Below are positions 1 to 61,213 of a stretch of 64,000 nucleotides of DNA, piece by piece. A model generated the notes under the pieces. It was not told the origin of the DNA. It made no database searches and was given only the letters and a program-made list of their open reading frames with translations. The number at the start of each line of letters is the position of its first letter. The stretch's first letter is position 1. Made by a program: the position numbers and the translations under genes. Source of the stretch: an uncultured Acidobacteriota bacterium (GTDB taxonomy: Bacteria; Acidobacteriota; Thermoanaerobaculia; Multivoradales; JAHEKO01); assembly GCA_963713825.1 (NCBI GenBank), contig CAVQNG010000003.1, positions 704,001 through 768,000 on the forward strand. The letters are read 5' to 3'.

Positions 1-842
1 TCGAAATCAGGCTTCTCGTACACCGATTCGTCCAGGAGCAGGTACTGGGGACACGTCTCGCCATAGACCTCCAGCCCCGAGTCCCGAGCCTTTGTCAGGG
101 CGTCAACGGCCTGCTGGCAGGTGACGTGGACGATGTAGGCGGAAGCTCCGGTCAGCCCTGCCAGGACCATCATCCGCTCGGTAGCCTCGCCCTCCAATTC
201 GGGCGGCCGCGAGCGAGGATGGGCCTCCGGGCCCAGACTACCGGCAGCCGCCAGGCGGCTGCGCAGGTGCTCCACCATGTCCCCGTGCTCGGCGTGCACC
301 AACACACGGGCTTGCAGGTTGTGCGCCGCCTCGAGGGCGCGAATCAGCGCCGCGTCTTCCAGGCCCACCGTCTCCTTGTAGGCCATGTAGAGCTTGAAGG
401 AGGGAATTCCCTGGTTGTGGACGCAGTCGGCCATCCACCGCGTGGTCTCCTCCCCCCACCAGGTGACGGCCATGTGGAGCCCATAGTCGGCCACCGCCTT
501 ACCAGCCTCCTCCTTGCGGGCCGCGAGCGCCTCCAAGAAGCTCTCTCCACGCTCTGGGTGAACGAAATCCACGATCGTCGTAGTGCCGCCTGCCAGCGCC
601 GCCGCAGTACCACTCTCGAAATCGTCCGAAGAGACGGTGCCTGCCACTGGTAGCTGCATGTGAACGTGGGGATCGACGCCGCCGGGAAAGACCAGTTGGC
701 CTGCGGCATCCAAGACTTCGTCTTCGGAGCCCGGCGCGAGAGCTTCGGCCAATTCCACGATCCGGCCGTCACGACATCGAATATCACCGCGCCAGCGCTG
801 CTGGCCCGTCACGATGTCGCCGTTGCGGATGAGAATGCCCAC
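1..842 (-). CDS. hydA: Dihydropyrimidinase / D-hydantoinase (HydA/HyuA family), 3' end runs off the window
   Basis: Not in the ORF track. Manual translation from GTG at 842 gives VGILIRNGDIVTG...VFPGGVDPHVHMQLPVAGTVSSDDFESGTAAALAGGTTTIVDF, the amidohydrolase DxHxH motif and dihydropyrimidinase signature. Later FKLYMAYK and VHAEH motifs are also present. Confidence 0.92.
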   Translation of the reverse strand, partial: MGILIRNGDIVTGQQRWRGDIRCRDGRIVELAEALAPGSEDEVLDAAGQLVFPGGVDPHVHMQLPVAGTVSSDDFESGTAAALAGGTTTIVDFVHPERGESFLEALAARKEEAGKAVADYGLHMAVTWWGEETTRWMADCVHNQGIPSFKLYMAYKETVGLEDAALIRALEAAHNLQARVLVHAEHGDMVEHLRSRLAAAGSLGPEAHPRSRPPELEGEATERMMVLAGLTGASAYIVHVTCQQAVDALTKARDSGLEVYGETCPQYLLLDESVYEKPDF

Positions 843-984
843 GATCAACCTTTGAAGAGGCGCATGTTCTCCTGAGAGTAACGCGAATTCGCGCCTTGCA
901 TAGCGGATTCTGCCTCTCAGAGTGGGTGAGAAGGACCTTCGGACCTGCGTTTCGACTCCCGAATCAAGTATCCTGTCACGCTGT

Positions 985-3614
<2,630 letters not shown>

Positions 3615-3618
<4 letters not shown>

Positions 3619-4838
3619 CCACAGAACCATCTCTTTCGTTGGGCCCTGACCGGGACGGCAGGATTCTCGTCACGGCGGCCGGCCGTGTGGTCCGGTTCGA
3701 CGACGAGGCCACGCCTGGGACAGCCCCGGCGTCGAACCTGAGCTGCGAGCAAGCTCGCATCGAGCCCGGCAGGGTCAACGCTCACACCCACATCTACAGC
3801 GGGCTGGCACCGTTCGAGATGCCCCCCCCGGCAGTGGCGCCCGAGAACTTTCTGCAGATTCTCGAGCGCGTCTGGTGGCGGCTGGATCGGGCTCTCGACG
3901 AGGAGTCCCTGCGGGCTTCGGCCCGCTTCTACGTGGCCCAAGCCCTTCTCGCTGGTACCACAACCCTGGTCGATCATCACGAATCGCCAACTTTCATCGA
4001 CGGCTCGCTGGACATCCTGGCCGATACCTGTCAGGAGCTCGGGATGCGGGCGCTGCTGTGCTATGGCGCCACCGAGCGCAACGGCGGCCGCGAGGAGGCT
4101 CACCGAGGACTCGAGGAGTGCCGCCGGTTCCATCAGGACAACAGTCGATCGTTGGTTCGAGGACTCGTAGGGCTCCATGCCTCCTTCACGGTCTCCGATG
4201 AGACCATCGAGGAGGCTGCCAACCTGAGCCGCGAGCTCGACACAGTCCTACACGTCCATGTGGCCGAGGACCTGGCCGATGTCGAGGATGCCCTTGAACG
4301 GGGCTACGACGGACCGCTGGAGCGCTTGCTGCACTTCGGTGCCCTGCCGCCGGGTTCGATTCTGGCTCACTGTGTTCACTGCCAGGCGGCGCAAGTTCGC
4401 ACCATTGCCGCCCGAGACCTGTGGATCGTCCAGAACCCGCGCTCGAATCTTGGCAACGGTGTGGGCTACCCCGCGGCCCTCAGCGAGAGTAACCAGGTGG
4501 CGGTCGGAACCGACGGCTATCCGGCCCGCATGGAGGACGAGGTGCTCGTCCTGAGAGCCGAGGCTGCCGAACACGGCGAAGCCGAGACTGTCATCACTGC
4601 TCGCGTCGCCGGCGCCTACCAGCTCGGAGCCGAACGCATTGGCCTCCAGCTGGCACCTTTGACACCAGGTGGTGCCGCTGATTTCATTGTGCGCGACAAC
4701 GACCGGGTCCGCCATGTTGGAGTAGCCGGTCGAGTTGTGGTTCGTGACGGCAGCTTGACGACTGCCGACCTGGAAGAAATCCATGCTCATGCGGTGGAGC
4801 AGGCCAGGCGTCTGTGGAACCGACTGGGCTCTGTGTAG
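3615..4838 (+). CDS. ssnA: SsnA-like metal-dependent amidohydrolase
   Basis: NAHTHIYS, WWRLDRALD, DHHESP, GLHASFT, HVHVAE and GTDG motifs; 4-nt overlap with the xdh stop. Confidence 0.85.
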
Positions 4839-4854
4839 CGGGAGGTAACGTGTC

Positions 4855-6345
4855 ATGCCGACACTCGGGCTGGAAACGAAAATCATCGACAAAGAAGTCT
4901 TCGACAACACGGTCAGCCATTTCCGCGCAGCCGGGATCCGCCTGCCGACCTTTGGCGAGCTGGCCGATCCCAAACGCATTCCGGAGACCATTCGCCAGGG
5001 CCTGGACGAGATCGACACCGATGCTGGGCACCCCCTGAACCTGTTCCGAGTGCACTGGCACAATGCGTCGGGTGGAGGCGCGTTTCGGGCCGTCCCCGAG
5101 CACATTGTCTTGCCATCGGAGCTGACGGGCGTCGAAGCGAAGATCGTCGTTCTTCCGGCGGATCACTTCCCAATGATTCACGCTCACAAGGTGCTGGCAA
5201 CCTATGGTTGTCTGGCTCCTCGGGTCATTACAGGGCAGTTCGATCCCACCCATCATCGAGCCATCTGGCCCTCCACCGGCAACTACTGCCGTGGAGGCAT
5301 CGCGGTCTCGAGGATCATGGACTGTCGAGGGGTCGCGGTGCTGCCGGAGGGCATGAGTCGAGAGCGCTTCGATTGGCTCGAGGCGTGGGTATCGAACCCC
5401 GAAGACATCATCAGGACCCACGGCACCGAGAGCAACGTCAAAGAGATCTATGACAAATGCGCCGAGCTCGACCAAGATGCGGACAACATCATCTTCAACC
5501 AGTTCAGTGAGTTCGGAAACTACCTGGCTCACTACTTATGCACCGGCTCGGCGATCGACCGGGTCCTGACACATCTGAAGGCCGACCATCAAGAGCTGCA
5601 ACTGCGGGCCTACATCTCGGCCACCGGATCCGGCGGCACTCTGGCGGCCGGCGACTACCTCAAGGAGCGTCATGGCGCCTGGATCGTCGCAGTGGAGGCC
5701 CTGGAGTGCCCGACGTTGCTCTACAACGGCTTCGGAGAGCACAACATCCAGGGCATCGGAGACAAGCACATTCCGTTGATTCACAACGTCATGAACACCG
5801 ACGCTGCCGTGGCGATCTCGGACGCCAGCACCGACGAGCTGCTGGTGCTCTTCAACTCCGATGAAGGCAAGCGCTATCTGGCCGAGCGACAAGGAGTACC
5901 CGACGATACTCTCGAAGCCCTGCACCGATTCGGGTTCTCCTCCATTTGCAACATCCTGGCCGGTATCAAGACGGCCAAGTACCTCGATCTCGGATCGGAC
6001 GATGTCGTCGTAACGGTGGCCACCGATGGTGAAGAGCTCTACCGCAGCGAGCACGAGAAGATCCTCGCCCAGCGATTTGGTGACCGGTTCGATTCGATCT
6101 CGGCTGGAGAGACCTTTGGGCAGCACCTGGCGGGCGTCGCTACCGACCACTTCCTGGAACTGTCGCACATCGACCGAACCCGCATCTTCAATCTTGGCTA
6201 CTTCACCTGGGTGGAGCAGCAGGGCATTTCCATCGAAGACTTCGTTGCCCGTCGCGAGCCGATTTTCTGGCACCGACTCCTCGATCTGATCCCCGCCTGG
6301 GACGCAATGATCGACGAGTTCAACAGTCACGTAGGCCTGGAGTGA
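4855..6345 (+). CDS. PLP-dependent fold-type II enzyme (cysteine synthase-like)
   Basis: AHKV (PLP lysine), [13 protein letters not shown] and IQGIG motifs; GGAGG RBS. Confidence 0.85.
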
Positions 6346-6377
6346 GGTAGGCTCGAGCCTCGTCCCGGAATCGCATC

Positions 6378-7817
6378 ATGAACCTCGCGTCGACTCTCGT
6401 CTGTCAGGGCTGCGGCCATTCCGTGCCTCCCGATGAGCCCTATCCGTTCCGCTGTCCTCAGGCCGATCTCGACGACGACATCGATCACGTTCTCCGGCGG
6501 ATTCTGGACACCTCCGCCCTGGACTCGCCCGCCGAGCTGAGTCGGCCTTTCTCCAGCGATCTCCGCAGCCCTTTCTTGCGATATGGGCGGCTACTTCACA
6601 GCTATCAGACGGCCCGCCACATGGGCCTCGACGATACGAGCTTCGCCAAACTGGTGACACGACTGGACGCCGCGGTGGCTCAGACCGACGGCCACGGGTT
6701 TCGAGTCACGCCCTTCGCTCCGGCTGACAAGCTGGCGCAGGCGCTCGACCTCGAGCCCGGTGGCCTTTGGATCAAGGACGAGACAGGCAATGTCTCCGGC
6801 TCCCACAAGGCTCGACACCTGATGGGACTCATGCTCTGGCTGGAGATGAGCCGGCAGCTCTGGCCAGAGAAGGTGGAGACCGCCCCCCGGCTGGCGATCG
6901 CCAGTTGCGGCAATGCCGCCCTCGGCGCCGCGGTCGTTGCCCGTGCGATGAACTATCCGCTCGACGTGTATGTGCCGACCTGGGCGGATACGGCGGTCAC
7001 AGAGCGCCTCGCCGGGCTGGGTGCAACCCTCGTTGCCTGCCCAAGGGAAGGTTCGATCACCGGCGACCCCTGCTATCACCGCTTCCGGGAAGCTGTCGGT
7101 CAGGGGGCCCTGCCCTTCACCTGCCAGGGGACAGAGAACGGTTTGGTCATCGAGGGAGGCAAGACCCTGGTCTGGGAGATGGTTTCCTCTCTCATGGTCG
7201 AGGAGCGCGAGCTCGACCACCTGTGCATCCAGGTCGGCGGTGGAGCCCTGGCCAGCGCCTGTATCCAGGGACTGTTCGAAGCGCGAAGCGTCGGCGTTCT
7301 CGAGCGGCTCCCCGCCATCCACACAGTGCAGTCGTCGGGCGCAAGCCCTCTGCACCGGGCCTGGGAGGCCTTGATGGAGAGGACTCTCGTTCGCCACCAG
7401 CGCGAGACACGTGAAATGCCCCCCCACCTCGGCGATGACGTGGAGCGGGCCGAATTCGTGCGCGACCGGGTCTCTCCTGCCCTCATCCAGGACGAGCTGC
7501 ACTATGCCGCCACCCACCGTTCCGAGTTCATGTGGCCCTGGGAAGAAGAGCCCACCAGCATCGCCACCGGCATCCTGGACGACGAGACCTACGACTGGCT
7601 GTCCGTGGTCGAAGGCATGCTGCTGACGGGGGGTGTCCCTTTGGTCGTCGATGAGAAGACCCTGACTCGGGCCCACGGACTGTCTCGCGAATACACCTCG
7701 GTGGCGGCCGACCCTACCGGCACTTCGGGTCTGGCAGGGCTCTTGGAGTTACACCGCCGCGGTACGATCCAGCCCGGCGAGACTCTCGGCGTGCTGTTGA
7801 CCGGCGTCGAGAGATAG
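6378..7817 (+). CDS. PLP-dependent threonine synthase-like enzyme with N-terminal Cys cluster
   Basis: KDETGNVSGSHKAR, ASCGNA, QVGGGAL and LLTG motifs; CQGC...C at the N-terminus. Confidence 0.82.
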   Translation: MNLASTLVCQGCGHSVPPDEPYPFRCPQADLDDDIDHVLRRILDTSALDSPAELSRPFSSDLRSPFLRYGRLLHSYQTARHMGLDDTSFAKLVTRLDAAVAQTDGHGFRVTPFAPADKLAQALDLEPGGLWIKDETGNVSGSHKARHLMGLMLWLEMSRQLWPEKVETAPRLAIASCGNAALGAAVVARAMNYPLDVYVPTWADTAVTERLAGLGATLVACPREGSITGDPCYHRFREAVGQGALPFTCQGTENGLVIEGGKTLVWEMVSSLMVEERELDHLCIQVGGGALASACIQGLFEARSVGVLERLPAIHTVQSSGASPLHRAWEALMERTLVRHQRETREMPPHLGDDVERAEFVRDRVSPALIQDELHYAATHRSEFMWPWEEEPTSIATGILDDETYDWLSVVEGMLLTGGVPLVVDEKTLTRAHGLSREYTSVAADPTGTSGLAGLLELHRRGTIQPGETLGVLLTGVER

Positions 7818-7944
7818 CCTCCCTGCGGCATATATACTTCCCGTCAGCTTTAGCCGTACCCAAAACCAAGAGCCTCGTATCGCGGGGCCCAGGACGACAG
7901 GCTCTCTCGTTGGTCTGTCGCGATAGACAAACAAGGAGAACTCA

Positions 7945-8895
7945 ATGAGTGACACGAAAATCATTGTTGTCGTCGGAGCGACTGGTGCGCAGGGTGGTGG
8001 CTTGGTTCGCGCCATCCTCGATGACGAGGGTGGACCCTTCACAGCGCGCGCCATCACCAGAAATGTCGAATCGGAGAAGGCGCAAGAGCTCGCCACGCTG
8101 GGCGCCGAGGTCGTCGCCGCCGACATCGACGACCCGCAGAGTCTCGAAAAGGCCTTGGAAGGCGCCTATGGTGCCTACTTCGTAACCTTCTTCTGGGAGC
8201 ACTTCTCGCCGGAGAAGGAGATGGCCCACGTCCGAGCCATGGCCGAGGCCGCCAAGCACGCAGGGCTCCAGCACGTTGTCTGGTCGACCCTCGAGGACAC
8301 CCGGAATTGGGTACCGCTCGACGACGACTCGATGCCGACGCTGATGGAGAGCTACAAGGTGCCACACTTCGATGCCAAGGGTGCGTCGAACCACTACTTC
8401 ACGGACCTCGGTGTTCCCGTCACGTTCCTGCTTACATCGTTCTACTGGGACAACTTCATTCATTTCGGGATGGGGCCGCAGAAGGGACCCGACGGCAAGT
8501 ACACCATCGCCCTGCCCATGGACGACAAAAAGCTTCCGGGCATGGCTGCCGAGGACATCGGACGCGCCGCCTATGGCATCTTCAAGAAGGGGCCCGAGCT
8601 CATCGGCAAGACGATCGGTATCACGGGCGAGCATCTGTCTGGAGCGGAAATGGCTGCCGCGCTCGGCAACGCCCTGGGGGTGGAGGTGGCCTACAACGCC
8701 GTGCCGCCCGAGGTCTATCGCAGCTTCGGCTTCCCCGGCGCCGAAGACCTCGGCAACATGTTCCAGTTCAAGCGGGACTTCAACGACTACTTCTGCGGTG
8801 TGCGCAAGGTCGACGAGACTCGAGCACTCAATCCAGCCCTCCAGTCCTTCGACGAGTGGCTCGCCCGCAACGCTAGTCGCATCCCGATAGAGTAG
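7945..8895 (+). CDS. NmrA/HSCARG family NAD(P)-binding protein
   Basis: VVGATGAQGG Rossmann motif, VPHFDAK; AAGGAG RBS. Confidence 0.9.
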   Translation: MSDTKIIVVVGATGAQGGGLVRAILDDEGGPFTARAITRNVESEKAQELATLGAEVVAADIDDPQSLEKALEGAYGAYFVTFFWEHFSPEKEMAHVRAMAEAAKHAGLQHVVWSTLEDTRNWVPLDDDSMPTLMESYKVPHFDAKGASNHYFTDLGVPVTFLLTSFYWDNFIHFGMGPQKGPDGKYTIALPMDDKKLPGMAAEDIGRAAYGIFKKGPELIGKTIGITGEHLSGAEMAAALGNALGVEVAYNAVPPEVYRSFGFPGAEDLGNMFQFKRDFNDYFCGVRKVDETRALNPALQSFDEWLARNASRIPIE

Positions 8896-8938
8896 CCGGG
8901 CGACAAGAATCGAAATCGAGACCGACGAGGAGATACGG

Positions 8939-9175
8939 ATGATCCGACTTCGCATCAAGGAGACCGGCACCGAGCTGGGATCCATCACCGAGGAAGACCT
9001 GCAATTCCTCATCGATAATCTGGAAGAAGAGTGGGAGGAGGACCAGGACTACTACCTCAACCGCCAAACCCTGGAGATGCTCAAGGGCCGCGGCATCTCT
9101 GCCTCTCTCGCTCAGATGCTCGAACGTGCGATGGGAGAAGGCGACGACGTCGAGGTGGAGTGGTCGCGGGAATAG
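8939..9175 (+). CDS. Small acidic hypothetical protein (78 aa)
   Basis: GAGGAG RBS; protein-like composition (LGSITEEDLQFLIDNLEEE..DQDYY). Confidence 0.75.
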   Translation: MIRLRIKETGTELGSITEEDLQFLIDNLEEEWEEDQDYYLNRQTLEMLKGRGISASLAQMLERAMGEGDDVEVEWSRE

Positions 9176-9301
9176 GCGCTCCTTGGACTTGCTTTCTTCG
9201 ATCACGCTGCTCGTCGCATTGTCTGCTGGCGCGCTGAGCTTACTGGCGGGCTGAGTGGCTCTGGCGAGGGCCCGACTCGGACGTCGCAGTCTGGAGAGTT
9301 C

Positions 9302-9958
9302 ATGTTTCTAGGTCATTTCGGAGTCGGATTCGGGGCCAAACGTATAGCCCCGAGGACGTCGCTGGGGACCCTGTTCCTGGCCTCCCAGTTCATCGATCTA
9401 CTCTGGCCCCTCCTCCTTCTCGTGGGAGCCGAGCGCGTCGCAATCGTGCCAGGCATCACGGTGGTTACGCCCCTGGACTTCACCCACTATCCGTGGTCCC
9501 ACAGCCTGCTGGCCGTCACGCTCTGGGGTGTACTTTTTGCAGCGACCTACTATCTGGTGAAGCGCTACAAGGCTGGAGCGTGGGTCTGCGGAGCCGCGGT
9601 CGTCAGCCACTGGGTACTCGATCTCGTGCTGCATCGGCCCGACCTGCCGCTGTTGCCCGGCGGTGACTACCGGGCGGGGTTCGGCCTCTGGAACTCTCTT
9701 GCAGCCACTCTCGTGATCGAGCTTGCGGTCTTCGCCGTGGGCCTTGTCCTCTATCTTCGAACCACGACCGCGTCTGATCGTATCGGGTCGATCGGTCTAT
9801 GGAGTCTGGTCGGCTTTCTCCTGCTGGTCTATGCGGGAAATCTGTTCGGGGCTCCTCCACCGAGTGTGCGCGCCATCGCCTGGCTAGGGCAGGCGCAATG
9901 GCTACTTATCGCGTGGGGCTACTGGATCGACCGACATCGAGTGACACAAGGAGTCTGA
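9302..9958 (+). CDS. Membrane-bound metal-dependent hydrolase-like protein (YbcI-like)
   Basis: MFLGH, PWSHSL and SHWVLD motifs; several transmembrane segments. Confidence 0.8.
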   Translation: MFLGHFGVGFGAKRIAPRTSLGTLFLASQFIDLLWPLLLLVGAERVAIVPGITVVTPLDFTHYPWSHSLLAVTLWGVLFAATYYLVKRYKAGAWVCGAAVVSHWVLDLVLHRPDLPLLPGGDYRAGFGLWNSLAATLVIELAVFAVGLVLYLRTTTASDRIGSIGLWSLVGFLLLVYAGNLFGAPPPSVRAIAWLGQAQWLLIAWGYWIDRHRVTQGV

Positions 9959-10054
9959 ATGACCCTCGCCCTGACCGCGACGGTCTACCTGATCCTCGGA
10001 CTTCTGAAGAGCAGGCCCTGATCCAAGCGTCCACGCCCCGGGAGGAAGACTTCG

Positions 10055-10996
10055 TCAGGGCACGATATGGGTGCCGGCCGAGCCGCGAATGGCAGCCTCG
10101 AGTAGGTGGGGCTGGGTAATGATTACCTCCTGGCCGCCATGCTCCAGGAACTCGATCGCCGCTTCGATCTTGGGCTTCATGCTGCCGGGCGGGAAATGAC
10201 CTGCCTCGAGATACAGCCGCGCCTCGCGGACGGTCATTCGATCGATCTCCCGCTGCTCGGGCTTCCCGAAGTTCAGAGCCACCCTGTCCACTGCCGTCGA
10301 GAGGATGAACATCTCGGCTCCGAGGTTCTTGGCCAGCATGCATGAGGCCCAGTCCTTGTCGACAACGGCACCCACCCCTTCGAGGCCACCGTCGTCCCGG
10401 CGAATCACCGGAATCCCGCCACCGCCAACCGCCACCACGATGATGTCCTTGGCCAACAGTGCCTCGATGGCCGGCTCCTCGATGATCTCCAGTGGCCGGG
10501 GTGACGCGACCACCCGCCGCCAGCCCCGCCCGGCGTCCTCGACCATCATCCACCCTTCGTTGTCCTGGTGCTCACGTGCTGTTGCCTCGCTGTAGAAGGG
10601 GCCGATCGGTTTCGAGGGCTTCTCGAATCCCGGGTCGTTCGCGTCGACCACCGTCTGCGTCACAATCGCGGCCACGGGCTTGTCGATCCCGCGGCGCCGC
10701 AACTCGTTGCCCAGGGTCTGGCTGATCTGATAGCCGATGGCACCCTGCGTATCGGCGCCACAACTGTCCAGGGGCACTTGGTGCAGCACCTCCTTGGCCA
10801 GCTCCGAGCGCAACAGGATGAAGCCGACCTGTGGGCCGTTGCCGTGCGTGATGACGACACGGTAACCCTCGGCCACGATATCGGCGATGTAATCGCTCGT
10901 CTCACCACAGGCCCGGTACTGATCGAAGACCGTCGAGTGCTCCGCATCTTTGATCAGCGAGTTACCACCAATAGCAATGACGACCAGCTTCTCCAT
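10055..10996 (-). CDS. arcC: Carbamate kinase (ArcC/YqeA)
   Basis: AIGGNSL, THGNGPQVG, KPIGPFY, GWRRVVASP, VVDKD and GSMKPK motifs. Confidence 0.96.
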   Translation of the reverse strand: MEKLVVIAIGGNSLIKDAEHSTVFDQYRACGETSDYIADIVAEGYRVVITHGNGPQVGFILLRSELAKEVLHQVPLDSCGADTQGAIGYQISQTLGNELRRRGIDKPVAAIVTQTVVDANDPGFEKPSKPIGPFYSEATAREHQDNEGWMMVEDAGRGWRRVVASPRPLEIIEEPAIEALLAKDIIVVAVGGGGIPVIRRDDGGLEGVGAVVDKDWASCMLAKNLGAEMFILSTAVDRVALNFGKPEQREIDRMTVREARLYLEAGHFPPGSMKPKIEAAIEFLEHGGQEVIITQPHLLEAAIRGSAGTHIVP

Positions 10997-11112
10997 GGAT
11001 CACCTCTCTCATGCCACGTCTCAGAGTTGAGACTCTTAGGCTATTATCCCGTTTCCAGACCCATTCAAGGGTCCTGAACTGTACGACCCCCGAAATCGGG
11101 AGGAGGTTTTCA

Positions 11113-12066
11113 ATGCGTAGCTTTCTGGGAAGGGACGTCCTCTCCCTCAAGGACTTCGACCGCGAAGAAGTCGATCACATTCTCGAAGTGGCCGAGGAAT
11201 TGGCTCCGATCGCCCGTAATCGTCAGAACACCGACTTGTTGCAGGACAAGATTCTGGCGGTGGCCTTCTACCAGCCCTCGACACGCACGCGGCTCGCCCA
11301 TGAGGCCGCGATGCTCCGCTTGGGCGGCAAGGTCACCGGCTACTCCGACGCCAAGATGACCCGCGCCGGCGACTTCTACCAGGAGACCATCAAGGACACC
11401 GTCAGGATGCTGGAGTGCTATGGCGATTGCATTGTCATGCGCCATTTCGAGCAGGGCGCACCCCACGAAGCCGCCCGCTGGGCAGAGGTTCCCATCATCA
11501 ACGGTGGCGACGGCTGGGGCGAGCACCCCACCCAGATCCTCACCGATCTCTATACCGTGCAGCAGGCCAAAGGCAGGATCGACGGCCTCAACTGGCTGGC
11601 CGTGGGTGACATGCGGATGCGCACCATGCACTCCCTGGCCTACGCCCTGACCAACTTCGACTGTCCCATCACTTTCGTCGCGCCGCCCGAGATCTCCCTG
11701 ACCGACGAGTTCAAGGCCGAGTTGGCGGGCTACGACCTCGACTTCCGTGAGGTGGACCATGTCGAGGAGGCCATCGCCGAGGCCGATGTGATTCTGGTCG
11801 AGCCCGTCGTGCAGCCCGACTACACCAAGTCCCGTGATGAGCGAGACGGGGACGTCGATCTGACACCGGCCAACTATCGGATCACCCGGGAGCTGCTCGA
11901 GGCCAAGGCCAAGTCGGATGCCGTGCTGCTGCACTCGCTGCCCCGCATGGACGAGATCCCGACCGAGGTCGACGACACCCCCTGGGCCTACTACTGGCAG
12001 GAGGCCTTCAACGGCGTGGTGATGCGGATGGCGTTGCTCGCCCTGGTCCTGGGAGCCAAAGAGTAG
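11113..12066 (+). CDS. Aspartate/ornithine carbamoyltransferase-family protein (ATCase-like, atypical substrate loop)
   Basis: STRT, VMRH, HPTQ and HSLPR motifs; AGGAGG RBS before ATG at 11113. Confidence 0.88.
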   Translation: MRSFLGRDVLSLKDFDREEVDHILEVAEELAPIARNRQNTDLLQDKILAVAFYQPSTRTRLAHEAAMLRLGGKVTGYSDAKMTRAGDFYQETIKDTVRMLECYGDCIVMRHFEQGAPHEAARWAEVPIINGGDGWGEHPTQILTDLYTVQQAKGRIDGLNWLAVGDMRMRTMHSLAYALTNFDCPITFVAPPEISLTDEFKAELAGYDLDFREVDHVEEAIAEADVILVEPVVQPDYTKSRDERDGDVDLTPANYRITRELLEAKAKSDAVLLHSLPRMDEIPTEVDDTPWAYYWQEAFNGVVMRMALLALVLGAKE

Positions 12067-12079
12067 GGAGCTTTTGGGG

Positions 12080-13270
12080 CTATAGGCGGCGCGGAGCCCC
12101 TCGCTGCAGCACTTCGGCGAGCACTCGGGCGGGATTCTCGAAGCGCGACAGTAGAATCATCGCCGCCATCACATAGGGCTTGTGCTCGGCCTCGTGGTAG
12201 GTGGCCGTCCGGTAGCGCTCGAACACGCTGGCGGCCACCTCACCCTCCTCACAACTGACTGCCGTGATATCGGCGGGGAGGCAGTGCATGTAGAGGGCTC
12301 GTCCTTCCTGCGTGGTCGCCATGAGCTCCTCGGTGCATTCCCACTGCTTGAACTGAGCGTTGTTCGCCACCGCCTCTTTCTCCAGTTCATCCATTTTGTC
12401 GGCCTGCCCCGAGCGCAAATAGCGGGTCCGCTTCTCCATGACGTGGAAGGGCGCCCAGCTCTTCGGGTAGACGACCTCGGCATCGGCGAAGGCTTCTTCC
12501 ATGCTGTGAACCAACTGGAAGGAGCCACCCGAACTCGCGGCCTGCTGGCTGGCCCGCTCGGCCGTGCCCGGCATCAGGTCATAGCCCTCGGGGTGAGCGA
12601 GCACCACATCCATCCCAAAGCGGGTCATCAGGTTGACGATGCCCTGGGGCACCGACAGAGGCTTGCCATAGGAGGGTGAGTAGGCCCAGGTCATGGCCAG
12701 CTTCTTGCCCCGCAGAGCCTCGAGCGAGCCGAAGGTCTTCCCGAGATGCATCAGGTCGGCCAGCGACTGTGTCGGATGGTCGCGGTCGCACTGCAGATTG
12801 ACCACCGCGGGACGCTGCGGCAACACCCCCTCTTCGTAGGCTTCGTCCAGTGAGCTCGCGACCTCGACCATGTACTCGTGCCCTTCGCCGATGAACAGGT
12901 CGTCCCGGATTCCGATGGCCTCGGTGAGAAACGAGATCATGGCCGCCGTCTCCCGCACCGTCTCTCCATGCGCCACCTGGGTCTTTGTTTCGTCCAGATC
13001 CATCAAGGACAGGCCCAGCAGGCTGGCGGCGCTGGCGAATGAGAATCGGGTACGGGTCGACTTGTCGCGGAAAAGAGAGACGGCTAGTCCGCCGCGAAAC
13101 AGACGCGCGTCGCAGTTGGCCCGATAGAGGTCCTCGAAGATCTCGGTGGCCAGCAGGAGCGCCTTGAGGTCGGCGCCCGATTGCTCCCAGGTCAGAAGGC
13201 AGTCCCTCTGGTAGAGATTCGTCTCTGTCCGGCCGAGCTCTTCGATACGTTGGCGAATCCGTTCCGACAT
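12080..13270 (-). CDS. ygeW: Knotted carbamoyltransferase YgeW
   Basis: FRDKSTRT, NLQCDRDHPTQ, WAYSPSYGKPLSVPQG, YPKSW and MHCLPADI, all YgeW signatures. Confidence 0.95.
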   Translation of the reverse strand: MSERIRQRIEELGRTETNLYQRDCLLTWEQSGADLKALLLATEIFEDLYRANCDARLFRGGLAVSLFRDKSTRTRFSFASAASLLGLSLMDLDETKTQVAHGETVRETAAMISFLTEAIGIRDDLFIGEGHEYMVEVASSLDEAYEEGVLPQRPAVVNLQCDRDHPTQSLADLMHLGKTFGSLEALRGKKLAMTWAYSPSYGKPLSVPQGIVNLMTRFGMDVVLAHPEGYDLMPGTAERASQQAASSGGSFQLVHSMEEAFADAEVVYPKSWAPFHVMEKRTRYLRSGQADKMDELEKEAVANNAQFKQWECTEELMATTQEGRALYMHCLPADITAVSCEEGEVAASVFERYRTATYHEAEHKPYVMAAMILLSRFENPARVLAEVLQRGAPRRL

Positions 13271-13288
13271 CCGATGCTCCTTGAGGTC

Positions 13289-15340
13289 CTATGCGTAGAG
13301 ACTGTTGATGTAGTTGATCCGATCCCCATCCAGAATCGCGAGTCGTAGCGCATCCATGAGAAAGAAGTACGTCAGGTCTACCTCGCCCTCGGCTTCCCCT
13401 TCGAGTGTTCCCTCAGGGTCCTGGCGGTCGAATCGTACCCGGAATCCTGGCCCGGTGAACGCGATCTCGTTCGCCTCGGCCCGCAGCTCGAACTCCTGGC
13501 CTTCGAAGCGGCCCAGCACCTCGTCGCGACCGGCCCGTCGCGCCATCTGGAAGCCATCCAACTCGATCGACGTCCTCCAGTCTTCAGCCCGCCGAAAGAA
13601 ACGCGGTTTGACGACGTAGGGCCCTCCATCTTCGGGGCAGAAGACGTCGCAGTTGCCGCACTCGTTGCAAAAGTCGGCGAAGGTGCCGATCTGGTGTCGC
13701 TCCTCGAGTCTCAGAGATCCCGTCTGCGCCCAATCCCAGCCTTCGGATCGCCGTTGCACCTTGACGACGGGAATCTCATCTCCTTCGATACGGTAGGTGA
13801 AGTTGGCATCATTGGGGCAGACCGGTACGCAGATGTCACAGGTGATGCAGTCGAACAGCTGCAGGTGGCGGCCGATCTTACGCGGTGCGGTGGCGTTGCG
13901 CTCCCGCCCGTAGCGGGGATCCCGTTCCACGGCCTCGACATAGCGTTCCGTGTTCAGCACCTTGGCAGCAGAGACCCACTGGCTGAACAGATCTTCTCCG
14001 GCCGCTTGTCTGAGGTCAGCCTCGTCCGACAGCGCTAGCAGGCAGGCCTCGCGAACTGGCGCTTCCGGGACTAACTCCAACTGGTCGAGGGCCTCTCGGC
14101 CCAGGTCATGCGCTCGCACGATGAAGTCGTCGATGGTCGGGGCGCCCACCTGCTCCATGCGTCGGGCCAGCTCTGCATGGTAGGCCTGCATTCGTCCATA
14201 ACCGCCCTTCTTCAGTAGGTCCGTGCAGACCGTCACCGGCACCAGGCCCAATGCCACCGCGTCCGGGAAATTGACGCTATCGATGCCAGCTGAGAACGAC
14301 ACCGGGATACGATCGCCGAAGTGCCGTCGAAAACGCCGCACCAGATGCATGGCAAGAACGTGGAGTGGCGGTCCCGACAAATAGACCTCCCTCTCGCTCT
14401 CCGGCAGGAATCCCTGGTTGTTTTCGACGATCAGAGTGTTGGTGAACTTCGCACCCAGACCCAAATCGAGAGCCCTGGCTTTTTGCTCCAGTCGCTCCAT
14501 CATGGCAACGGCTTGCTCCCAGGTCGTATCCCGCTCGAAAGCGCTGGCCGGCACGCGGATATCGTGGTAACCGAGGCTGTCGTGCAGCAGGTGCGCGGTC
14601 TTCTCGCGGCCGAGCAGCATGGGATTGAACTTGACGACGCAGTTGAGCCGATACTCCTGCATCAGAAACAGGATGATGCCTTCGATCTCCTCTGGAGGAC
14701 AGCCGTGAAAGGTGCTCAGGGTGACCGTGTCCGCCAGGGAGTTGGAGAAATCCAGATCGCGCAGCTCGCCCAGCTCAGAGGGAATCTCTTGGCGCAGCCG
14801 TTCGATGGTTTCGCCGGCGCTCATCATCCCTTCAATGAACGATCGAACCCTGTCCGAACGGATGCCGGCGAGGTCGTATCCCACACTCAGGTCGTAAACG
14901 ATCTCTCGGCACCCCTGCACCCCTTCGATCTGGCCGCTGTCGGCGAGCATCTCGATCAGCATCGAGCCCTTCACGTACTCGTTCAGTGACTCTTCCAGCT
15001 TGAGCTCCTGGGACCACTCGGCGTTGAAGCCTACAGTCCGCATGTCGATGCAGGGGCGTGGAATCTCCAGGTCGTCGAGAACTTGGACGGTCTTCAGCTC
15101 CAGGATCCGGGCGCCGCCCAACCAGGCCAGAACGAGGTTCTGCGCCATCTGGGTCTGGGGGCCGGCCGCCGGGCCCAGCGGGCTGGGTACCCGGTGGCGG
15201 TGAAAGTCGACCGCGAAGTCCTGCCCATGCTTTGGGGAGAAGAACCGACTCCGCGGCAAGTCGAAGATCGATCCGCATGCCGCCAGCTCTCGGAACATGC
15301 GCCGCGTCAGCGCGGCAAAAGGATAGGGCGTCAGGTTCAA
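13289..15340 (-). CDS. ygfK: YgfK-like oxidoreductase (FMN TIM-barrel + C-terminal 2x[4Fe-4S]), lacking the central FAD/NADPH module
   Basis: GPAAGPQTQMAQN, ELKTVQ, RPCID, STFHGCPP and CTDLLKKGG motifs; CITCDICVPVCP and CNECGNCDVFCP. TTG start overlaps the upstream TGA. Confidence 0.85.
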   Translation of the reverse strand: MNLTPYPFAALTRRMFRELAACGSIFDLPRSRFFSPKHGQDFAVDFHRHRVPSPLGPAAGPQTQMAQNLVLAWLGGARILELKTVQVLDDLEIPRPCIDMRTVGFNAEWSQELKLEESLNEYVKGSMLIEMLADSGQIEGVQGCREIVYDLSVGYDLAGIRSDRVRSFIEGMMSAGETIERLRQEIPSELGELRDLDFSNSLADTVTLSTFHGCPPEEIEGIILFLMQEYRLNCVVKFNPMLLGREKTAHLLHDSLGYHDIRVPASAFERDTTWEQAVAMMERLEQKARALDLGLGAKFTNTLIVENNQGFLPESEREVYLSGPPLHVLAMHLVRRFRRHFGDRIPVSFSAGIDSVNFPDAVALGLVPVTVCTDLLKKGGYGRMQAYHAELARRMEQVGAPTIDDFIVRAHDLGREALDQLELVPEAPVREACLLALSDEADLRQAAGEDLFSQWVSAAKVLNTERYVEAVERDPRYGRERNATAPRKIGRHLQLFDCITCDICVPVCPNDANFTYRIEGDEIPVVKVQRRSEGWDWAQTGSLRLEERHQIGTFADFCNECGNCDVFCPEDGGPYVVKPRFFRRAEDWRTSIELDGFQMARRAGRDEVLGRFEGQEFELRAEANEIAFTGPGFRVRFDRQDPEGTLEGEAEGEVDLTYFFLMDALRLAILDGDRINYINSLYA

Positions 15341-16761
15341 CTGCCCATGTCCTCGGTAAAGACCGACCGGGGAGGGGCGTGCGGATAAGCCCACTTGCGA
15401 ACCGCGACCGCCTCTTTGACGTGGTCGATGACCTGAAGCGAGATCTCCGTGACGATCTGTTCCAGTTCTCCTTCAGTCATCTCCACGATGAGACCGTCCA
15501 CGGCATCACCGATCATGGCCTCTACGACTGTATGCCCCTCCTCGCTGGAAAGCGTGGCCGACAGCGTGTCGGCGAACGCATTGAAGACCACCTGTCCCAC
15601 GGTGACTACGAGCGGTCTCAGAACGGCATCCGGTAGAGGCACCATTCGCAGGGCGTCAGCACTTTCCACGGCCTGCTCCAGGTTGGTGTTCATGAAGCCC
15701 CTTGCCTGTTCCCTGACTTCCTCGCTGGTCAGGATCTCCTGCAACTGATTGGCCAGCTCGCGGCTCAAAGCGTCGCGGTGAGTCGTAGCGACCGAGCGGA
15801 TGATCTTCTGGTGGGTCCCGTCACGGATCTCGGCCTGGGTCTCGTTGAGGATGCGCAGCGACACCATGTCGGAGATCTCTTCGCTGATGATGTTGGCGAA
15901 GTACTTGACTGTGCGGCTGATGACGTCGTCCCCTACCTTCGAGTATTCGCTCTGGTGCAGGCGAATGTAGATGGAAGCCACCCGAAACAGACGGAAGAGC
16001 CGGAATTGCTTGAGCGGAATGATTCCCAGCAGGTCGTACCAGTGGAACAGCGGGTACAGAAACCAGGTGGCATAAGTCCCACGACGAACCGAGACGAACC
16101 AACCGATGAAGAACTCCGCCGCGAAGATCAGCAGAAAGGGGAGATCGATCTTCCAGAAATTGTCGGTGAGATTGCCGCCCAGATCATAGGTTCGGTAGAA
16201 GTTGACCTCCATCAGGGGTCGCACTGTGTCGTCGAAGAACTGAACCCGCCCGGGAAGCCTCTGAGGGTCCGGCTGCAGCGACCAGAAGTATGGGAGGCCT
16301 TCCTCGCTGGTCACTCCTTCCATGACGGCCATTCCGCCCGGCTCCTCTTGGAGGTACAGCTGCATTTCCTTGAGACTGCGAATCAGGCTCCGGGTCAGCC
16401 CCGAGCGCTCGAACGGGTTCTCCTTCACAATCGTCACGGAGAGCCCTTGTAACTCCACAAGTGTCGTTTCGAGCTCGAAGGGTGGCGCCGCCGCTTCGAG
16501 CTGCTCTTCGAGGCGATCGACGAGCGCCAAGGTTGCCGTCGTGAGCGGCTCGGGCTCGATGCCCTTGACCGGATCGTAGATTCGCGTGATCGACGGAAGG
16601 TGCCGGAAATAGACGGGGCGTAGCCAGAGGTAAGTGAGATCGAACAGGATCAGGCCCAGGTTCACGATGGCCAGATAGACCATCAAGAAGTCCCAAGCCA
16701 ACCGTGGCGTGAGACTCCTCCCGAAGGCTCGTAGCCGAGCGAATCTGCCTTCCCTGCTCAT
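15337..16761 (-). CDS. Ion-transport-family membrane protein with a voltage-sensor-like S1-S4 bundle and no evident pore
   Basis: Transmembrane segments with IFAAEF (S2), WYDLLGIIP (S3) and FRLFRLFRV (S4); long helical C-terminus. ATG at 16761 preferred. Confidence 0.75.
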   Translation of the reverse strand: MSREGRFARLRAFGRSLTPRLAWDFLMVYLAIVNLGLILFDLTYLWLRPVYFRHLPSITRIYDPVKGIEPEPLTTATLALVDRLEEQLEAAAPPFELETTLVELQGLSVTIVKENPFERSGLTRSLIRSLKEMQLYLQEEPGGMAVMEGVTSEEGLPYFWSLQPDPQRLPGRVQFFDDTVRPLMEVNFYRTYDLGGNLTDNFWKIDLPFLLIFAAEFFIGWFVSVRRGTYATWFLYPLFHWYDLLGIIPLKQFRLFRLFRVASIYIRLHQSEYSKVGDDVISRTVKYFANIISEEISDMVSLRILNETQAEIRDGTHQKIIRSVATTHRDALSRELANQLQEILTSEEVREQARGFMNTNLEQAVESADALRMVPLPDAVLRPLVVTVGQVVFNAFADTLSATLSSEEGHTVVEAMIGDAVDGLIVEMTEGELEQIVTEISLQVIDHVKEAVAVRKWAYPHAPPRSVFTEDMGS

Positions 16762-16845
16762 GACCAGAGTCAAGCGTAACGCATACCCGCCTGCTTTGGC
16801 TTTGGCGGATTGCACATTGCGCTGTCTCGCGTGGCAGGGCCGTGG

Positions 16846-17222: not shown

Positions 17223-19118
17223 ATGTCGGACTCCTTCGCTCCCGTTCGCCAGGTGGCCTTGCTCTTTCTGGTACTCGCCGCCTCTTCCCTGGAGCCGGTT
17301 GGAGCGCAGGAGTCACCTGGGTTCGCGGACACTCGCTCGCGACTCGTCAGTCTTCACACCGATCGGTTGACCTCCGGCTGGCTGAAGACTCATGGCGTGC
17401 CCGGTGCTGTGGTGGCCCTCGTCAAAGACAGGCGTCCGCTGCTGGTCAAGGGCTACGGCGTGGCCGACTTGGCCTCCGGCGTGCCAATGGATCCCGAACG
17501 CACGCTCGTCCATGCCTCCTCTCTTGCCACACCCTTGACAGCGACCGCTCTGCTCCAGTTGGTCGATGCTGGACTTCTGGATCTGGGAGCCGACATCGAC
17601 TCCTATCTTCAGACCCTGCGAATCCAACCGACGTTTCCGGAGCCTGTTACCGCCAAGCGGCTTCTGGTTCATAGCGCCGGGTTCGACGCCCGGATCATCG
17701 CTCGTCAGGTTCACTACCCCGAGGAGCTCCAGCCACTGCAGGACTACCTGGCTGCCAGAATGCCACCCAGGATCCGGCCACCAGGCGAGGTCAGCATCTA
17801 CTCCGAGCACAGCTACGCCCTGGCGGGATTGCTGATCGAAGAGATCTCCGGCGCCCCGTTTGCCGCCTACATGCGTCGAAACGTGTTCTTGCCTTTGGGA
17901 ATGCGCCGGAGCTCATTTGCTTGGACGCCGGAGCTCGCGACCTCCGTGGCGACGGGCTATGGATTGGTAGGCACAGATCTCGAGCCGGTGCCAAGGGATC
18001 TCCGGCAGACGGTGCCGGCTTTCATGTTGGCGACCACCGCCTCGGACGCGGCCCACTGGATGCTGGCCCTGCTCAATCAGGGCGCCTTCGAAGGGCACCG
18101 CATCCTCAGCAGCGAAAGCGCTTCTCTGATGCTGTCGCGGCAATTCACCCACCATCCTGCGCTCGTCGGCAGGAGCTTTGGCTTGCGCGAAGGCCACCAC
18201 TTCGAGTCCGGCGAGTTCTTTCAGGTGGGCACGAGCTCGGGTTTCTCTTCGGCGGTTGTGCTGCTTCCTGCTCGACGCCTCGGACTCTTTGTGGCGGGCA
18301 ATGGTCGAACTCCTATCTGGGGATTGGTCGACGCCATCCTGAGGCCTTTTGTGGGCCGAGCTCCAAGCCCCCTCCCCCTAGATGAGGAGCCCTCCGAGGA
18401 CCGCGCTCTCGGGGTAGCCGGGTTCTATCGCGAGACCGGCATCCCGCTGACCAGCCTCGAGAAGCTGGCTACCCTGATCCGTCAGGATCGCCTGGTCGAG
18501 TCGGCCGCAGGCGACCTGGTCTGGCGGTCTCGCACATTCAGACCGGCGGAAGAGCCGTTGCTCTATCGAGAGATGGACTCGGGCGAGCCCTTGGCCCTGG
18601 TGAGCGGGACATCCAAGACCTGGTACCTGGCATTCTCGTGGGGACTCATGGAGGGCGTCTCCTGGTTCGACAGCCGACCGGTGCAGCTCACCCTCTGGGT
18701 CGTGTTTGCGGCCCTCTTTCTGGCGGCATCGGCCTTGCCGACGAGCCGGTTTCCGGCCCGGCAGGCCAGCCTGACTCCGCCGGACTCCTTTCGTCCTCGC
18801 TGGCCCCTCTACTGCGCTTCCCTCGCGGCTCTCTTTCATCTGGCCTTCCTCATCACCCTGGCCACCACACTGGCCTGGGCCCTTGGAGAGGGAGCCCAGA
18901 GTCTGGCCTTCGGTGTCCCCCTCGCCCTCCGCCTGGTATTAGGCCTGCCTTTGATCGGAGCAGCCCTGACCCTGCCCGCCCTGCTTGGCACGATTCGCGC
19001 CTGGTTGGCGAGATCCTGGACTCTCGGTCATCGTCTCCGCTTGACCTTCACCGTTGTCGCGTTGTTGCTGTTCCTGCCGTTTCTCCGCACCTGGAATATG
19101 CTGGGGTTCCATTTTTGA
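17223..19118 (+). CDS. Serine hydrolase / beta-lactamase-fold protein with signal peptide and C-terminal TM helices; catalytic motifs degenerate
   Basis: VPGAVVALV..GYGVAD, LLVHSAG and LPLGM scaffold; SxxK reads SLAT and YSN reads YSE. Confidence 0.82.
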   Translation: MSDSFAPVRQVALLFLVLAASSLEPVGAQESPGFADTRSRLVSLHTDRLTSGWLKTHGVPGAVVALVKDRRPLLVKGYGVADLASGVPMDPERTLVHASSLATPLTATALLQLVDAGLLDLGADIDSYLQTLRIQPTFPEPVTAKRLLVHSAGFDARIIARQVHYPEELQPLQDYLAARMPPRIRPPGEVSIYSEHSYALAGLLIEEISGAPFAAYMRRNVFLPLGMRRSSFAWTPELATSVATGYGLVGTDLEPVPRDLRQTVPAFMLATTASDAAHWMLALLNQGAFEGHRILSSESASLMLSRQFTHHPALVGRSFGLREGHHFESGEFFQVGTSSGFSSAVVLLPARRLGLFVAGNGRTPIWGLVDAILRPFVGRAPSPLPLDEEPSEDRALGVAGFYRETGIPLTSLEKLATLIRQDRLVESAAGDLVWRSRTFRPAEEPLLYREMDSGEPLALVSGTSKTWYLAFSWGLMEGVSWFDSRPVQLTLWVVFAALFLAASALPTSRFPARQASLTPPDSFRPRWPLYCASLAALFHLAFLITLATTLAWALGEGAQSLAFGVPLALRLVLGLPLIGAALTLPALLGTIRAWLARSWTLGHRLRLTFTVVALLLFLPFLRTWNMLGFHF

Positions 19119-19202
19119 GTGGAGCTTCCAACGCTCACTCCGCCATGGTTCGTGGCACAATGCAGCACGGCTAGACCTAGACGCTTGGGAGGGTCGATCT
19201 CT

Positions 19203-39074: not shown

Positions 39075-43052
<3,978 letters not shown>

Positions 43053-58232: not shown

Positions 58233-58249
58233 ACGGATGGTCTGGGCCC

Positions 58250-58590
58250 CTGGGGTGGAGGCGTCCGGTCGTACCTCCCGGCTGATCTCTGGGGGCTTGA
58301 GGTTGAGGAGCCCGTCGTTCCTCCGGTCAGCCTTTGAGGGCTTGGGACCTGAGGCCTGGACCACCCCACCCATCCCGGCCGGCAGGGGCGCCGGCCGCTT
58401 CAAGAACTCACGCTTCAGTCTTGCCCCCTTACATCCCTATGCCCTTGAGCCCTCTAGCGGTGCTGAGAGGTTCGTTCGAGTGGTTCGCAGGCGGAAGGGC
58501 CTCTACGAGACATCGGTCCCATACCCAGGACCCAGGTCCCAAGCCCTCAAAGATCGTCCGGCGGCGAGCCGGACGCCTCAACTCCAGGAC
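58250..58590 (+). repeat. Modular palindromic intergenic element, copy 3
   Basis: Two tandem units at 58252-58346, core module 58468-58487, inverted unit 58538-58585; 58500-58540 is the inverted homolog of 48633-48673. Confidence 0.85.
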
Positions 58591-58610
58591 GGGTGGGCGG
58601 GGGGATGGGC

Positions 58611-59840: not shown

Positions 59841-59858
59841 CGGTTCTCGCCTACCCGC

Positions 59859-61079: not shown

Positions 61080-61213
61080 GGCCGGCAGCGTACCACGACA
61101 GATTTGCCGTCCGGGCACCCTTTCATGGTCCTGTTGCCTGTCCTTGGCAGGGCTGCGAGAATCAGCCCGTTCGACGAATCCGCTTATCGAAGTCCCACCC
61201 TTTGGGAGTGACA

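Follow-up and report, generated by a model that had tools for sequence, protein, structure and literature searches.

What would a second carbamoyltransferase do in a purine-degradation cluster that already has one? The question is raised by a 64,000-nucleotide stretch of contig CAVQNG010000003.1 (positions 704,001 to 768,000) from an uncultured bacterium of the Thermoanaerobaculia (Acidobacteriota), which we will call the window. Its left part holds genes resembling the anaerobic urate-degrading cluster of Escherichia coli, and among them an extra carbamoyltransferase gene, here called CTx, and the genes of two pyridoxal 5'-phosphate (PLP) enzymes, PLP1 and PLP2. The answer we favor, with a probability of roughly 45%, is that CTx would cleave the 2-ureido group of 2,3-diureidopropionate and YgeW, or a YgeW-like enzyme called CT2 in other bacteria, the 3-ureido group, for a gain of two ATP, and that the PLP enzymes would finish the route to pyruvate. 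This division of the two groups is drawn by analogy with an allantoate-cleaving relative of aspartate carbamoyltransferase (ATCase) and with diaminopropionate carbamoyltransferases of the ornithine branch (available parts of PMC4016543 and PMC4581275).

The reductive urate pathway was solved only in 2025, and in gut bacteria only. According to the available parts of the published accounts (PMC12507026, 10.1101/2025.04.24.650524, PMC12990295), XdhD, together with YgfM, reduces urate to 2,8-dioxopurine, which is dearomatized by YgfK or UacX; SsnA and HyuA then carry out the ring opening that leads to 2,3-diureidopropionate. One ureido group of this compound is phosphorolysed by YgeW, with carbamate kinase providing the ATP, the other is hydrolysed by YgeY, and YgeX converts diaminopropionate to pyruvate. 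The known variants include ferredoxin-type clostridial enzymes, the hydrolase UacY, and an F420-type reductase in Chloroflexota (PMC12507026).

We mapped the genes of the window from the listing of open reading frames (ORFs), from Pfam and NCBIfam models, and by tblastn with reference proteins of E. coli K-12 (NC_000913.3). The cluster spans positions 3..16815 and is made up of the following features:

3..836, minus strand: hyuA-like gene for a D-hydantoinase/dihydropyrimidinase, present with its N-terminal 278 amino acids (aa) only, the gene running past the left window end
ORF 922..3618, plus strand: xdhD/xdhAC-type molybdenum (Mo) enzyme with fused 2Fe-2S part; TIGR03311 914 bits, cutoff 830
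3615..4838, plus strand: ssnA-like amidohydrolase, with a GTGA overlap between its start and the stop of xdhD
4855..6345, plus strand: PLP1, a 496-aa fold-type-II PLP enzyme, CysK/CBS-like, of an unnamed family related to PF00291
6378..7817, plus strand: PLP2, a 479-aa fold-type-II PLP enzyme, threonine-synthase-like, related to PF00291
7945..8895, plus strand: NmrA-like NAD(P)-binding protein; PF05368 187 bits
9302..9958, plus strand: YdjM-like membrane protein; PF04307 25 bits, below the cutoff
10055..10996, minus strand: carbamate kinase of the yqeA/arcC type; NF009007 416 bits, cutoff 266
10997..11112, no strand: divergent spacer of 116 bp between carbamate kinase and CTx, with a GCTATTAT box and a GGGAGGAGG ribosome-binding site
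11113..12066, plus strand: CTx, the extra ATCase-like carbamoyltransferase, with an HSLP motif; TIGR00670 257 bits, cutoff 237
12080..13270, minus strand: ygeW, a knotted carbamoyltransferase; NF005538 622 bits, cutoff 453
13289..15340, minus strand: ygfK-like reductase; TIGR03315 395 bits over model positions 4-398, cutoff 835; TTG start at 15340
15337..16815, minus strand: membrane protein of 492 aa with an RLFRLFR stretch, without a Pfam or NCBIfam match

The preliminary description of this DNA had hydA/hyuA, xdh, ssnA, carbamate kinase, ygeW and ygfK-like genes lying together, and all of them were found as placed by Pfam, NCBIfam and tblastn, as were CTx and the two PLP enzymes, which it had also pointed out. 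Some starts have been adjusted, and the right border is further out: because the stop of the 492-aa membrane protein gene overlaps the TTG start of the ygfK-like gene (TTG/TGA), the unit is extended to 16815. The partial hyuA gene scores 299 bits with TIGR02033 over model positions 1-278, and its product is 37.5% identical to residues 3-279 of E. coli HyuA (tblastn, as for the E. coli identities that follow). The xdhD start is likely the in-frame ATG at 985; the product is of the Se-type, with the Pfam domains Fer2_2, Ald_Xan_dh_C, MoCoBD_1 and MoCoBD_2. With 285 bits the ssnA-like gene stays under the cutoff of NF005540 (444), yet SsnA is its best-matching family, with 38% identity to the E. 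coli protein over 270 residues. The carbamate kinase is 47% identical to YqeA and the window YgeW 59% identical to its E. coli namesake; the ygeW gene converges on CTx across a gap of 13 bp. The ygfK-like protein corresponds to residues 5-405 only of E. coli YgfK (38% identity) and has in addition a 4Fe-4S dicluster; the Pyr_redox_2 domain, which binds flavin adenine dinucleotide (FAD) and NAD(P)H in residues 552-839 of E. coli YgfK, was missing from it in a domain comparison.

As claimed earlier, ygeY and ygeX are missing from the window: none of the E. coli queries YgeX, YgeY, YgfM, XdhB, YqeB, YqeC, MocA and UacT had a tblastn match at E<=1e-8 across the 64 kb, and with the YgfM and XdhB queries unmatched there is no gene in the window for an FAD subunit of the XdhD-type enzyme. 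The sole M20 peptidase gene of the 64 kb (59859..61250) was considered as a distant ygeY and rejected, being an M20D/CpsA-like amidohydrolase that scores 31 bits with the YgeY model, the cutoff of which is 321.

Judged by its gene content, the region is a Thermoanaerobaculia version of the reductive (2,8-dioxopurine) pathway of urate/purine degradation. The resemblance to the urate-degrading cluster seen at the outset thus holds, in the form of a variant of the published one (available parts of PMC12507026, 10.1101/2025.04.24.650524 and PMC12990295), and so does the placement in a non-gut lineage, the closest loci being those of Thermoanaerobaculia metagenome-assembled genomes (MAGs). The E. 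coli cluster ygeW-ygeX-ygeY-hyuA-yqeA/ygfK-ssnA-ygfM-xdhD has in common with the window the grouping of XdhD, the YgfK N-domain, SsnA, HyuA, YgeW and carbamate kinase homologues. Unlike it, the window has no YgeX, YgeY or YgfM, its ygfK-like protein has no FAD/NAD(P)H domain, and a pseudo-ATCase, two other PLP enzymes, and the NmrA-like, YdjM-like and membrane-protein genes are added. The variants of Clostridioides difficile and C. sporogenes (XdhAC, UacX lacking an FAD domain, the hydrolase UacY; PMC12507026, in its available part) are like the window in having a Mo enzyme without FAD subunit and a reductase without NAD(P)H module; these two absences suggest a ferredoxin-type donor here, as in the clostridial variants. 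The window reductase differs from theirs in being YgfK-like and not a PydA/UacX homologue, and the gene set suggests two phosphorolytic ureido-cleaving enzymes where C. difficile has two hydrolytic ones.

The upper steps follow from homology to the characterized enzymes of E. coli and Clostridium: the XdhD-type enzyme would reduce urate to 2,8-dioxopurine. The YgfK-like protein, with an N-domain of the flavin mononucleotide type and Fe-S clusters, would dearomatize it; since the NAD(P)H module is lacking, the electron donor is presumably a ferredoxin-type carrier. The SsnA-like enzyme and HyuA would open the two rings to give 2,3-diureidopropionate. YgeW and carbamate kinase, too, are recognized by homology. 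The rest of the scheme is a proposal, in which both ureido groups of 2,3-diureidopropionate would leave by phosphorolysis. YgeW, an ornithine-branch enzyme, would take the 3-ureido group, and CTx, of the aspartate branch, the 2-ureido (N-alpha-carbamoyl) group, each carbamoyl phosphate yielding ATP through the carbamate kinase encoded beside CTx. The 2,3-diaminopropionate, or a ureido-alanine intermediate, would be converted to pyruvate and ammonia by PLP1 and/or PLP2, at the place that YgeX has in E. coli.

Much in this scheme depends on what kind of enzyme CTx is. Its TIGR00670 score lies above the NCBIfam ATCase cutoff, with a model that is blind to the split between pseudo-ATCases and true ATCases; its best PDB matches are ATCases (E=8e-68), and its relatives carry the label 'aspartate carbamoyltransferase' in the databases. 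We aligned 81 members of the CTx family and 63 partner enzymes with PyrB, ArgI and YgeW of E. coli, using only full-query matches without stops. In E. coli PyrB numbering, S52, T53, R54, T55, R56, R105, H134, Q137, R167 and L267 are retained in 81/81 CTx sequences, and the motifs STRTR and HPTQ of the carbamoyl-phosphate site are intact. Just as uniformly, S80 has become R, K84 has become Y, P266 has become S (HSLP for HPLP), and R229-x-Q231 is lost. Two alignments of the 240s region are possible: one sets EPVVQPDY against TRVQKERL and has P-V-V at the RxQ position, and the other has an 8-residue insert followed by TKSRDER, with K-S-R at that position; neither shows RxQ.

A search of 1.84 billion proteins put these replacements in a wider frame. 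Its 150 best cluster representatives included 102 full-length ones, to which E. coli PyrB and four CTx sequences were added as five reference rows. Among them the canonical set numbers 58 sequences, every one with the K84, RxQ and HPLP aspartate signature, and 44 have R80 without RxQ. In a quick IQ-TREE tree of 103 rows, with four odd rows excluded, the 40 sequences that combine R80 with the loss of RxQ make up one side of a branch with an SH-aLRT support of 89, apart from the canonical ATCases, and the window CTx groups with Chloroflexota proteins in small clades (support 99, 99, 98). On the evidence of residues and tree, CTx is not PyrB and belongs to the 'pseudo-ATCase' radiation of Barba et al. 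2013; it looks catalytically competent but not an ATCase. Because the carbamoyl-phosphate site is intact and the linkage described below is near-universal, CTx is quite probably a catabolic carbamoyltransferase feeding carbamate kinase. The closest CTx proteins, 95-98% identical, are from Thermoanaerobaculia, and the next, at ~80%, from Anaerolineae and Marinimicrobia. The ~80% identity of CTx between Thermoanaerobaculia and Chloroflexota stands beside only 53-60% for carbamate kinase and 46-50% for PLP1; either an unusually strong constraint on CTx or gene transfer between phyla would account for it.

The pseudo-ATCases, as described in the available part of PMC4016543, share with CTx the carbamoyl-phosphate motifs STRT and HPTQ, an H[ST]LP motif (HSLP in CTx) for HPLP, and the loss of RxQ, at the place of which CTx has a VQP stretch; the neighborhood of ygeW, xdh and hyuA is likewise shared. 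Subgroup 2 adjoins ygeW, xdhABC and hyuA in Nocardioides sp. JS614, and subgroup 3 has HSLP and VxP motifs; function is assigned there to neither. By these described motifs and contexts, CTx matches subgroup 3 in its motifs and subgroup 2 in its gene context. Subgroup 1 is reported to be an allantoate-phosphorolysing ureidoglycine carbamoyltransferase beside carbamate kinase. Its member Rxyl_2847 of Rubrobacter xylanophilus is, like CTx, an ATCase-branch enzyme with carbamate kinase as a neighbor among purine-catabolic genes, and the diureido acid allantoate is the compound from which it is proposed to phosphorolyse a ureido group; it differs in its HPLA motif, in belonging to an oxidative (uricase/allantoinase) pathway, and in a substrate that is one carbon shorter (PMC4016543). 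For the partner, the precedent is the occurrence of diaminopropionate carbamoyltransferases in the ornithine branch (PMC4581275, in its available part). The same ATP gain through ureido phosphorolysis is made by the arginine deiminase pathway with its catabolic ornithine carbamoyltransferase and carbamate kinase, using one carbamoyltransferase and another substrate. The pairing of pseudo-ATCase with ygeW has thus been in print since 2013, in the parts of the literature available without a proposed function. In the literature searched, represented mainly by titles and abstract openings, we found no proposal that the 2,8-dioxopurine pathway has two carbamoyltransferases, and neither the 2,8-dioxopurine reading, the wide Chloroflexota module nor the two PLP enzymes.

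The linkage recurs in other genomes. Of the first 600 stretches that matched the pattern in a scan of species-representative genomes, 558 encoded a relative; the 80 best of these, each with flanks of at most 10 kb, make up loci L001-L080, the genes of which were mapped by competitive tblastn. Every locus was chosen for CTx, and the counts below allow for contig ends. Three loci (L001-L003) are from Thermoanaerobaculia and extend to the left only into xdhD; the other 77 are from Chloroflexota. The window arrangement from xdhD to the ygfK-like gene is repeated in 3/3 of the former. Among the Chloroflexota loci, CT2 lies directly after CTx in 66 of the 68 with enough downstream DNA, carbamate kinase follows CT2 in 63/64, and a GntR regulator lies upstream in 64/70. 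CT2 is an unknotted YgeW-like carbamoyltransferase of 327 aa with an HPLP motif, 32% identical to the window YgeW, with which it has a SY-KP-SVPQ stretch in common. Purine-related genes are frequent nearby: adenine deaminase in 38/59 loci and an 8-oxoguanine-deaminase-type gene in 40/55. Where the full 10 kb downstream is available (49 Chloroflexota loci), a ThrC-like PLP gene is found in 26, a PLP1 homologue in 16, the ATPase of a nucleoside-type ATP-binding cassette (ABC) transporter in 31 and a Bmp-type binding protein in 30. Among the Chloroflexota operons, 21 loci have both PLP1 and ThrC-like genes, 13 have just the ThrC-like gene and 2 just PLP1; PLP1 homologues, 46-50% identical, occur in 25/80 loci overall. 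A true YgeX homologue was found in none of the 80 loci nor in the window, no region being best explained by YgeX in competitive tblastn.

The linkage of the extra enzymes that the preliminary description expected elsewhere is therefore there, with CTx accompanied in Chloroflexota by carbamate kinase, a YgeW-like partner and PLP enzymes, and the objection that the linkage might not be conserved falls, because it recurs in another phylum. CTx, a YgeW-like enzyme, carbamate kinase and two PLP enzymes thus make up a module that is conserved across two phyla with different gene orders, and this conservation speaks for a common role in purine degradation. In L016 and L042 the module is joined to XdhD-type, SsnA-like and HyuA genes and to F420-type enzymes, the kind of Chloroflexota cluster that PMC12507026 mentions; by its gene content L042 is a full uricolytic-type cluster holding YgeY, CTx, CT2 and the kinase.

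Some further features of the Chloroflexota operons may be mentioned here. Clusters with CTx also include, at L042:7602-8618 and L016:14747-15475, a luciferase-like gene (PF00296) and an F420_oxidored gene; they fit the F420-type reductase variant in the available part of PMC12507026. Three genes recur 3' of carbamate kinase: one for an unannotated 680-aa protein, present in 18/49 full-flank loci, one for a GT2 glycosyltransferase between the two PLP genes, and one for a protein of ~190-250 aa before HyuA.

PLP1 and PLP2 are counted as part of the unit since they trail xdhD and the ssnA-like gene with gaps of only 16 and 32 bp. PLP1 reaches 32 bits with the Pfam PALP model, below the cutoff. 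Its AlphaFold2 (AF2) model, built from 20 sequences, has a pLDDT of 83.4 and a pTM of 0.88, and Foldseek places it nearest to CysK, CBS and beta-cyanoalanine synthase (TMt 0.73-0.80); K112, S140-T141-G142-N143 and G258-S259-x-G261-T262 are invariant in the 20 sequences. PLP2 scores 117 bits with PALP and has the lysine motif SGSHK144AR and a Cys-rich N-terminal stretch; its AF2 model (25 sequences, pLDDT 81.3) best matches threonine synthase, serine racemase and threonine deaminase. In the ESM Atlas both fall into unnamed PLP-enzyme clusters only. Neither could be upheld as a diverged YgeX: PLP2 scores 19 bits with NF006058 (cutoff 276), reaches E=0.007 in BLASTP and has threonine synthases as its top Foldseek matches, and PLP1 reaches E=0.017 against YgeX. 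The modelled folds suggest a chemistry that fits action on a beta-substituted alanine, diaminopropionate or 3-ureidoalanine, and the two enzymes are likely stand-ins for YgeX.

Taken more widely, and held a little more loosely than the division of the two ureido groups, the proposal is that anaerobic purine breakdown may have its missing second phosphorolytic decarbamoylase in the CTx family, now labelled 'aspartate carbamoyltransferase'. An alternative lower pathway from 2,3-diureidopropionate to pyruvate, with a yield of two ATP and not one, might then consist of this enzyme, a YgeW-type partner, carbamate kinase and two PLP enzymes, and in environmental fermenters like the Anaerolineae it could be more usual than the gut-type YgeY/YgeX. 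If this were true, the substrate-level ATP yield from purines would be doubled, a large misannotated family and two unnamed PLP families would gain a function, and it would be seen how abundant fermenters of sediment and sludge (Anaerolineae, Thermoanaerobaculia) may live on nucleobases. The pair of an aspartate-branch and an ornithine-branch carbamoyltransferase also offers a direct handle on the regiochemistry of YgeW, which is still disputed for the lower part of the pathway.

It is also worth setting out what weighs against the two-phosphorolysis proposal. An R (D) configuration has been proposed for the intermediates, while ATCase-type enzymes use L-amino acids. The alignment of CTx in the 240s region is ambiguous, and two PLP enzymes exceed what the proposal needs. 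The hyuA gene is cut by the window end, and ygeY and ygeX could lie to its left. XDH, SsnA-like or HyuA genes occur within 10 kb in just 8/77 Chloroflexota loci. The groups working on the pathway disagree whether YgeW cleaves the 2- or the 3-ureido group (PMC12990295, in its available part). A YgeY-family hydrolase (TIGR03526 455 bits, cutoff 321.5) is encoded directly upstream of CTx in 24/73 Chloroflexota loci, and CT2 and the kinase are present in these loci wherever the contig reaches that far; with YgeY upstream of CTx and CT2 present as well, three ureido-cleaving enzymes can coexist for two ureido groups. The earlier suggestion that the extra carbamoyltransferase replaces YgeY finds no support in that form: since YgeY adjoins CTx in these 24 loci, and all are together in L042, CTx is not simply a YgeY substitute.

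The idea that YgeY and the PLP pair avoid each other in Chloroflexota was considered and set aside. The raw counts over the 49 full-flank loci are negative, either PLP gene being present in 23/32 loci without YgeY vs 4/17 with it. We distrust them because the YgeY loci usually carry the 680-aa gene and the ABC transporter, which push the PLP genes beyond 10 kb; the effect is probably one of the 10-kb limit. Both YgeY and PLP genes are held by L037, L038, L042 and L073.

The same YgeY-family genes, coexisting with CTx, a YgeW-like enzyme and the kinase in 24/73 loci and in L042, lend some weight to another explanation, that the ureido steps are E. coli-like, with YgeW phosphorolysis followed by hydrolysis, for which YgeY or some other amidase would be encoded beyond the window, and that CTx acts on a different carbamoylated purine or pyrimidine catabolite, or on a stereo- or regio-isomer, and feeds the kinase from there. 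Most Chloroflexota operons would suit it, having the adenine deaminase and 8-oxoguanine-deaminase-type genes rather than ring-opening genes nearby, and so would the end of the window within hyuA, with the left flank beyond it. We nevertheless find this explanation unlikely. The published pathway has no other known ureido intermediate, the near-constant pairing of CTx with a YgeW-like enzyme fits two steps on one diureido substrate, and YgeY is not within reach in L016 or in the window. Even with a different substrate, the module of CTx, YgeW-like enzyme and carbamate kinase would be a well-defined target for enzymology.

The PLP enzymes suggest a further possibility, in which only one ureido group is phosphorolysed, with CTx and YgeW as alternatives for this first step, and the other leaves as urea when PLP1 carries out a beta-elimination on 3-ureido-alanine (albizziin) to give aminoacrylate and then pyruvate. 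The structure of PLP1 is that of a CysK/CBS-type enzyme of beta-replacement/elimination, its lysine, asparagine-loop and glycine-loop residues are invariant, albizziin is reported as a YgeW product (PMC12507026, in its available part), and two otherwise unexplained PLP enzymes would be accounted for. This route is distinctly improbable all the same: it leaves two side-by-side carbamoyltransferases (66/68 loci) unexplained, and a Pfam scan of the window genes found no urease or urea carboxylase among them. That CTx is merely a housekeeping PyrB in an incidental position, as its family score, its PDB matches and its database label would have it, is hardly credible and is rejected on residues, tree and gene context, the K84, R229/Q231 and HPLP proline kept in all canonical sequences being replaced in every CTx, its clade being separate, its neighbors in two phyla being carbamate kinase and catabolic genes with no pyrC, pyrI or pyrR adjacent, and pseudo-ATCase genomes having genuine ATCases elsewhere (Barba et al., PMC4016543, in its available part).

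As to how the cluster is expressed, the true start of CTx is the ATG at 11113, preceded by the GGGAGGAGG ribosome-binding site, and the GCTATTAT box is invariant in an alignment of the three related MAG loci L001-L003. A promoter shared by carbamate kinase and CTx had been suggested. The 116-bp divergent spacer is real; a shared sigma-70 promoter within it was not upheld, since the promoter scan made no call there and its matches overall were at chance level. Rfam at gathering thresholds gave no riboswitch or tRNA match, and ARAGORN found no tRNA.

The NmrA-like and YdjM-like genes inside the cluster are conserved in L001-L003, at 83-92% and 83-90%, respectively. The 492-aa membrane protein, translationally coupled to the ygfK-like gene, is 84% identical in L002 and L003, and its RLFRLFR stretch recalls a voltage-sensor helix. 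Just beyond it, at 17223..20330 (plus strand), a 631-aa protein of beta-lactamase/transpeptidase fold is followed immediately by a DUF2891 protein (445 bits), and these two genes stand beside the cluster in L002 and L003 too. Further to the right, a MreB ORF at 39903..41351 (minus strand) encodes 482 aa with the MreB domain at residues 153-476 only and overlaps a SurA-like ORF at 41100..43052; the listed MreB start is probably too far upstream. The four genes at 57231..61250, for a 2,4-diaminopentanoate-dehydrogenase-like protein, a DUF819 membrane protein, a 'Gate' nucleoside-recognition membrane protein and the M20D amidohydrolase, may be a separate amino-acid catabolic unit. Near the right window end, at 62709..63740 (plus strand), lies an IS481-type transposase gene (rve, HTH_32, LZ_Tnp_IS481).

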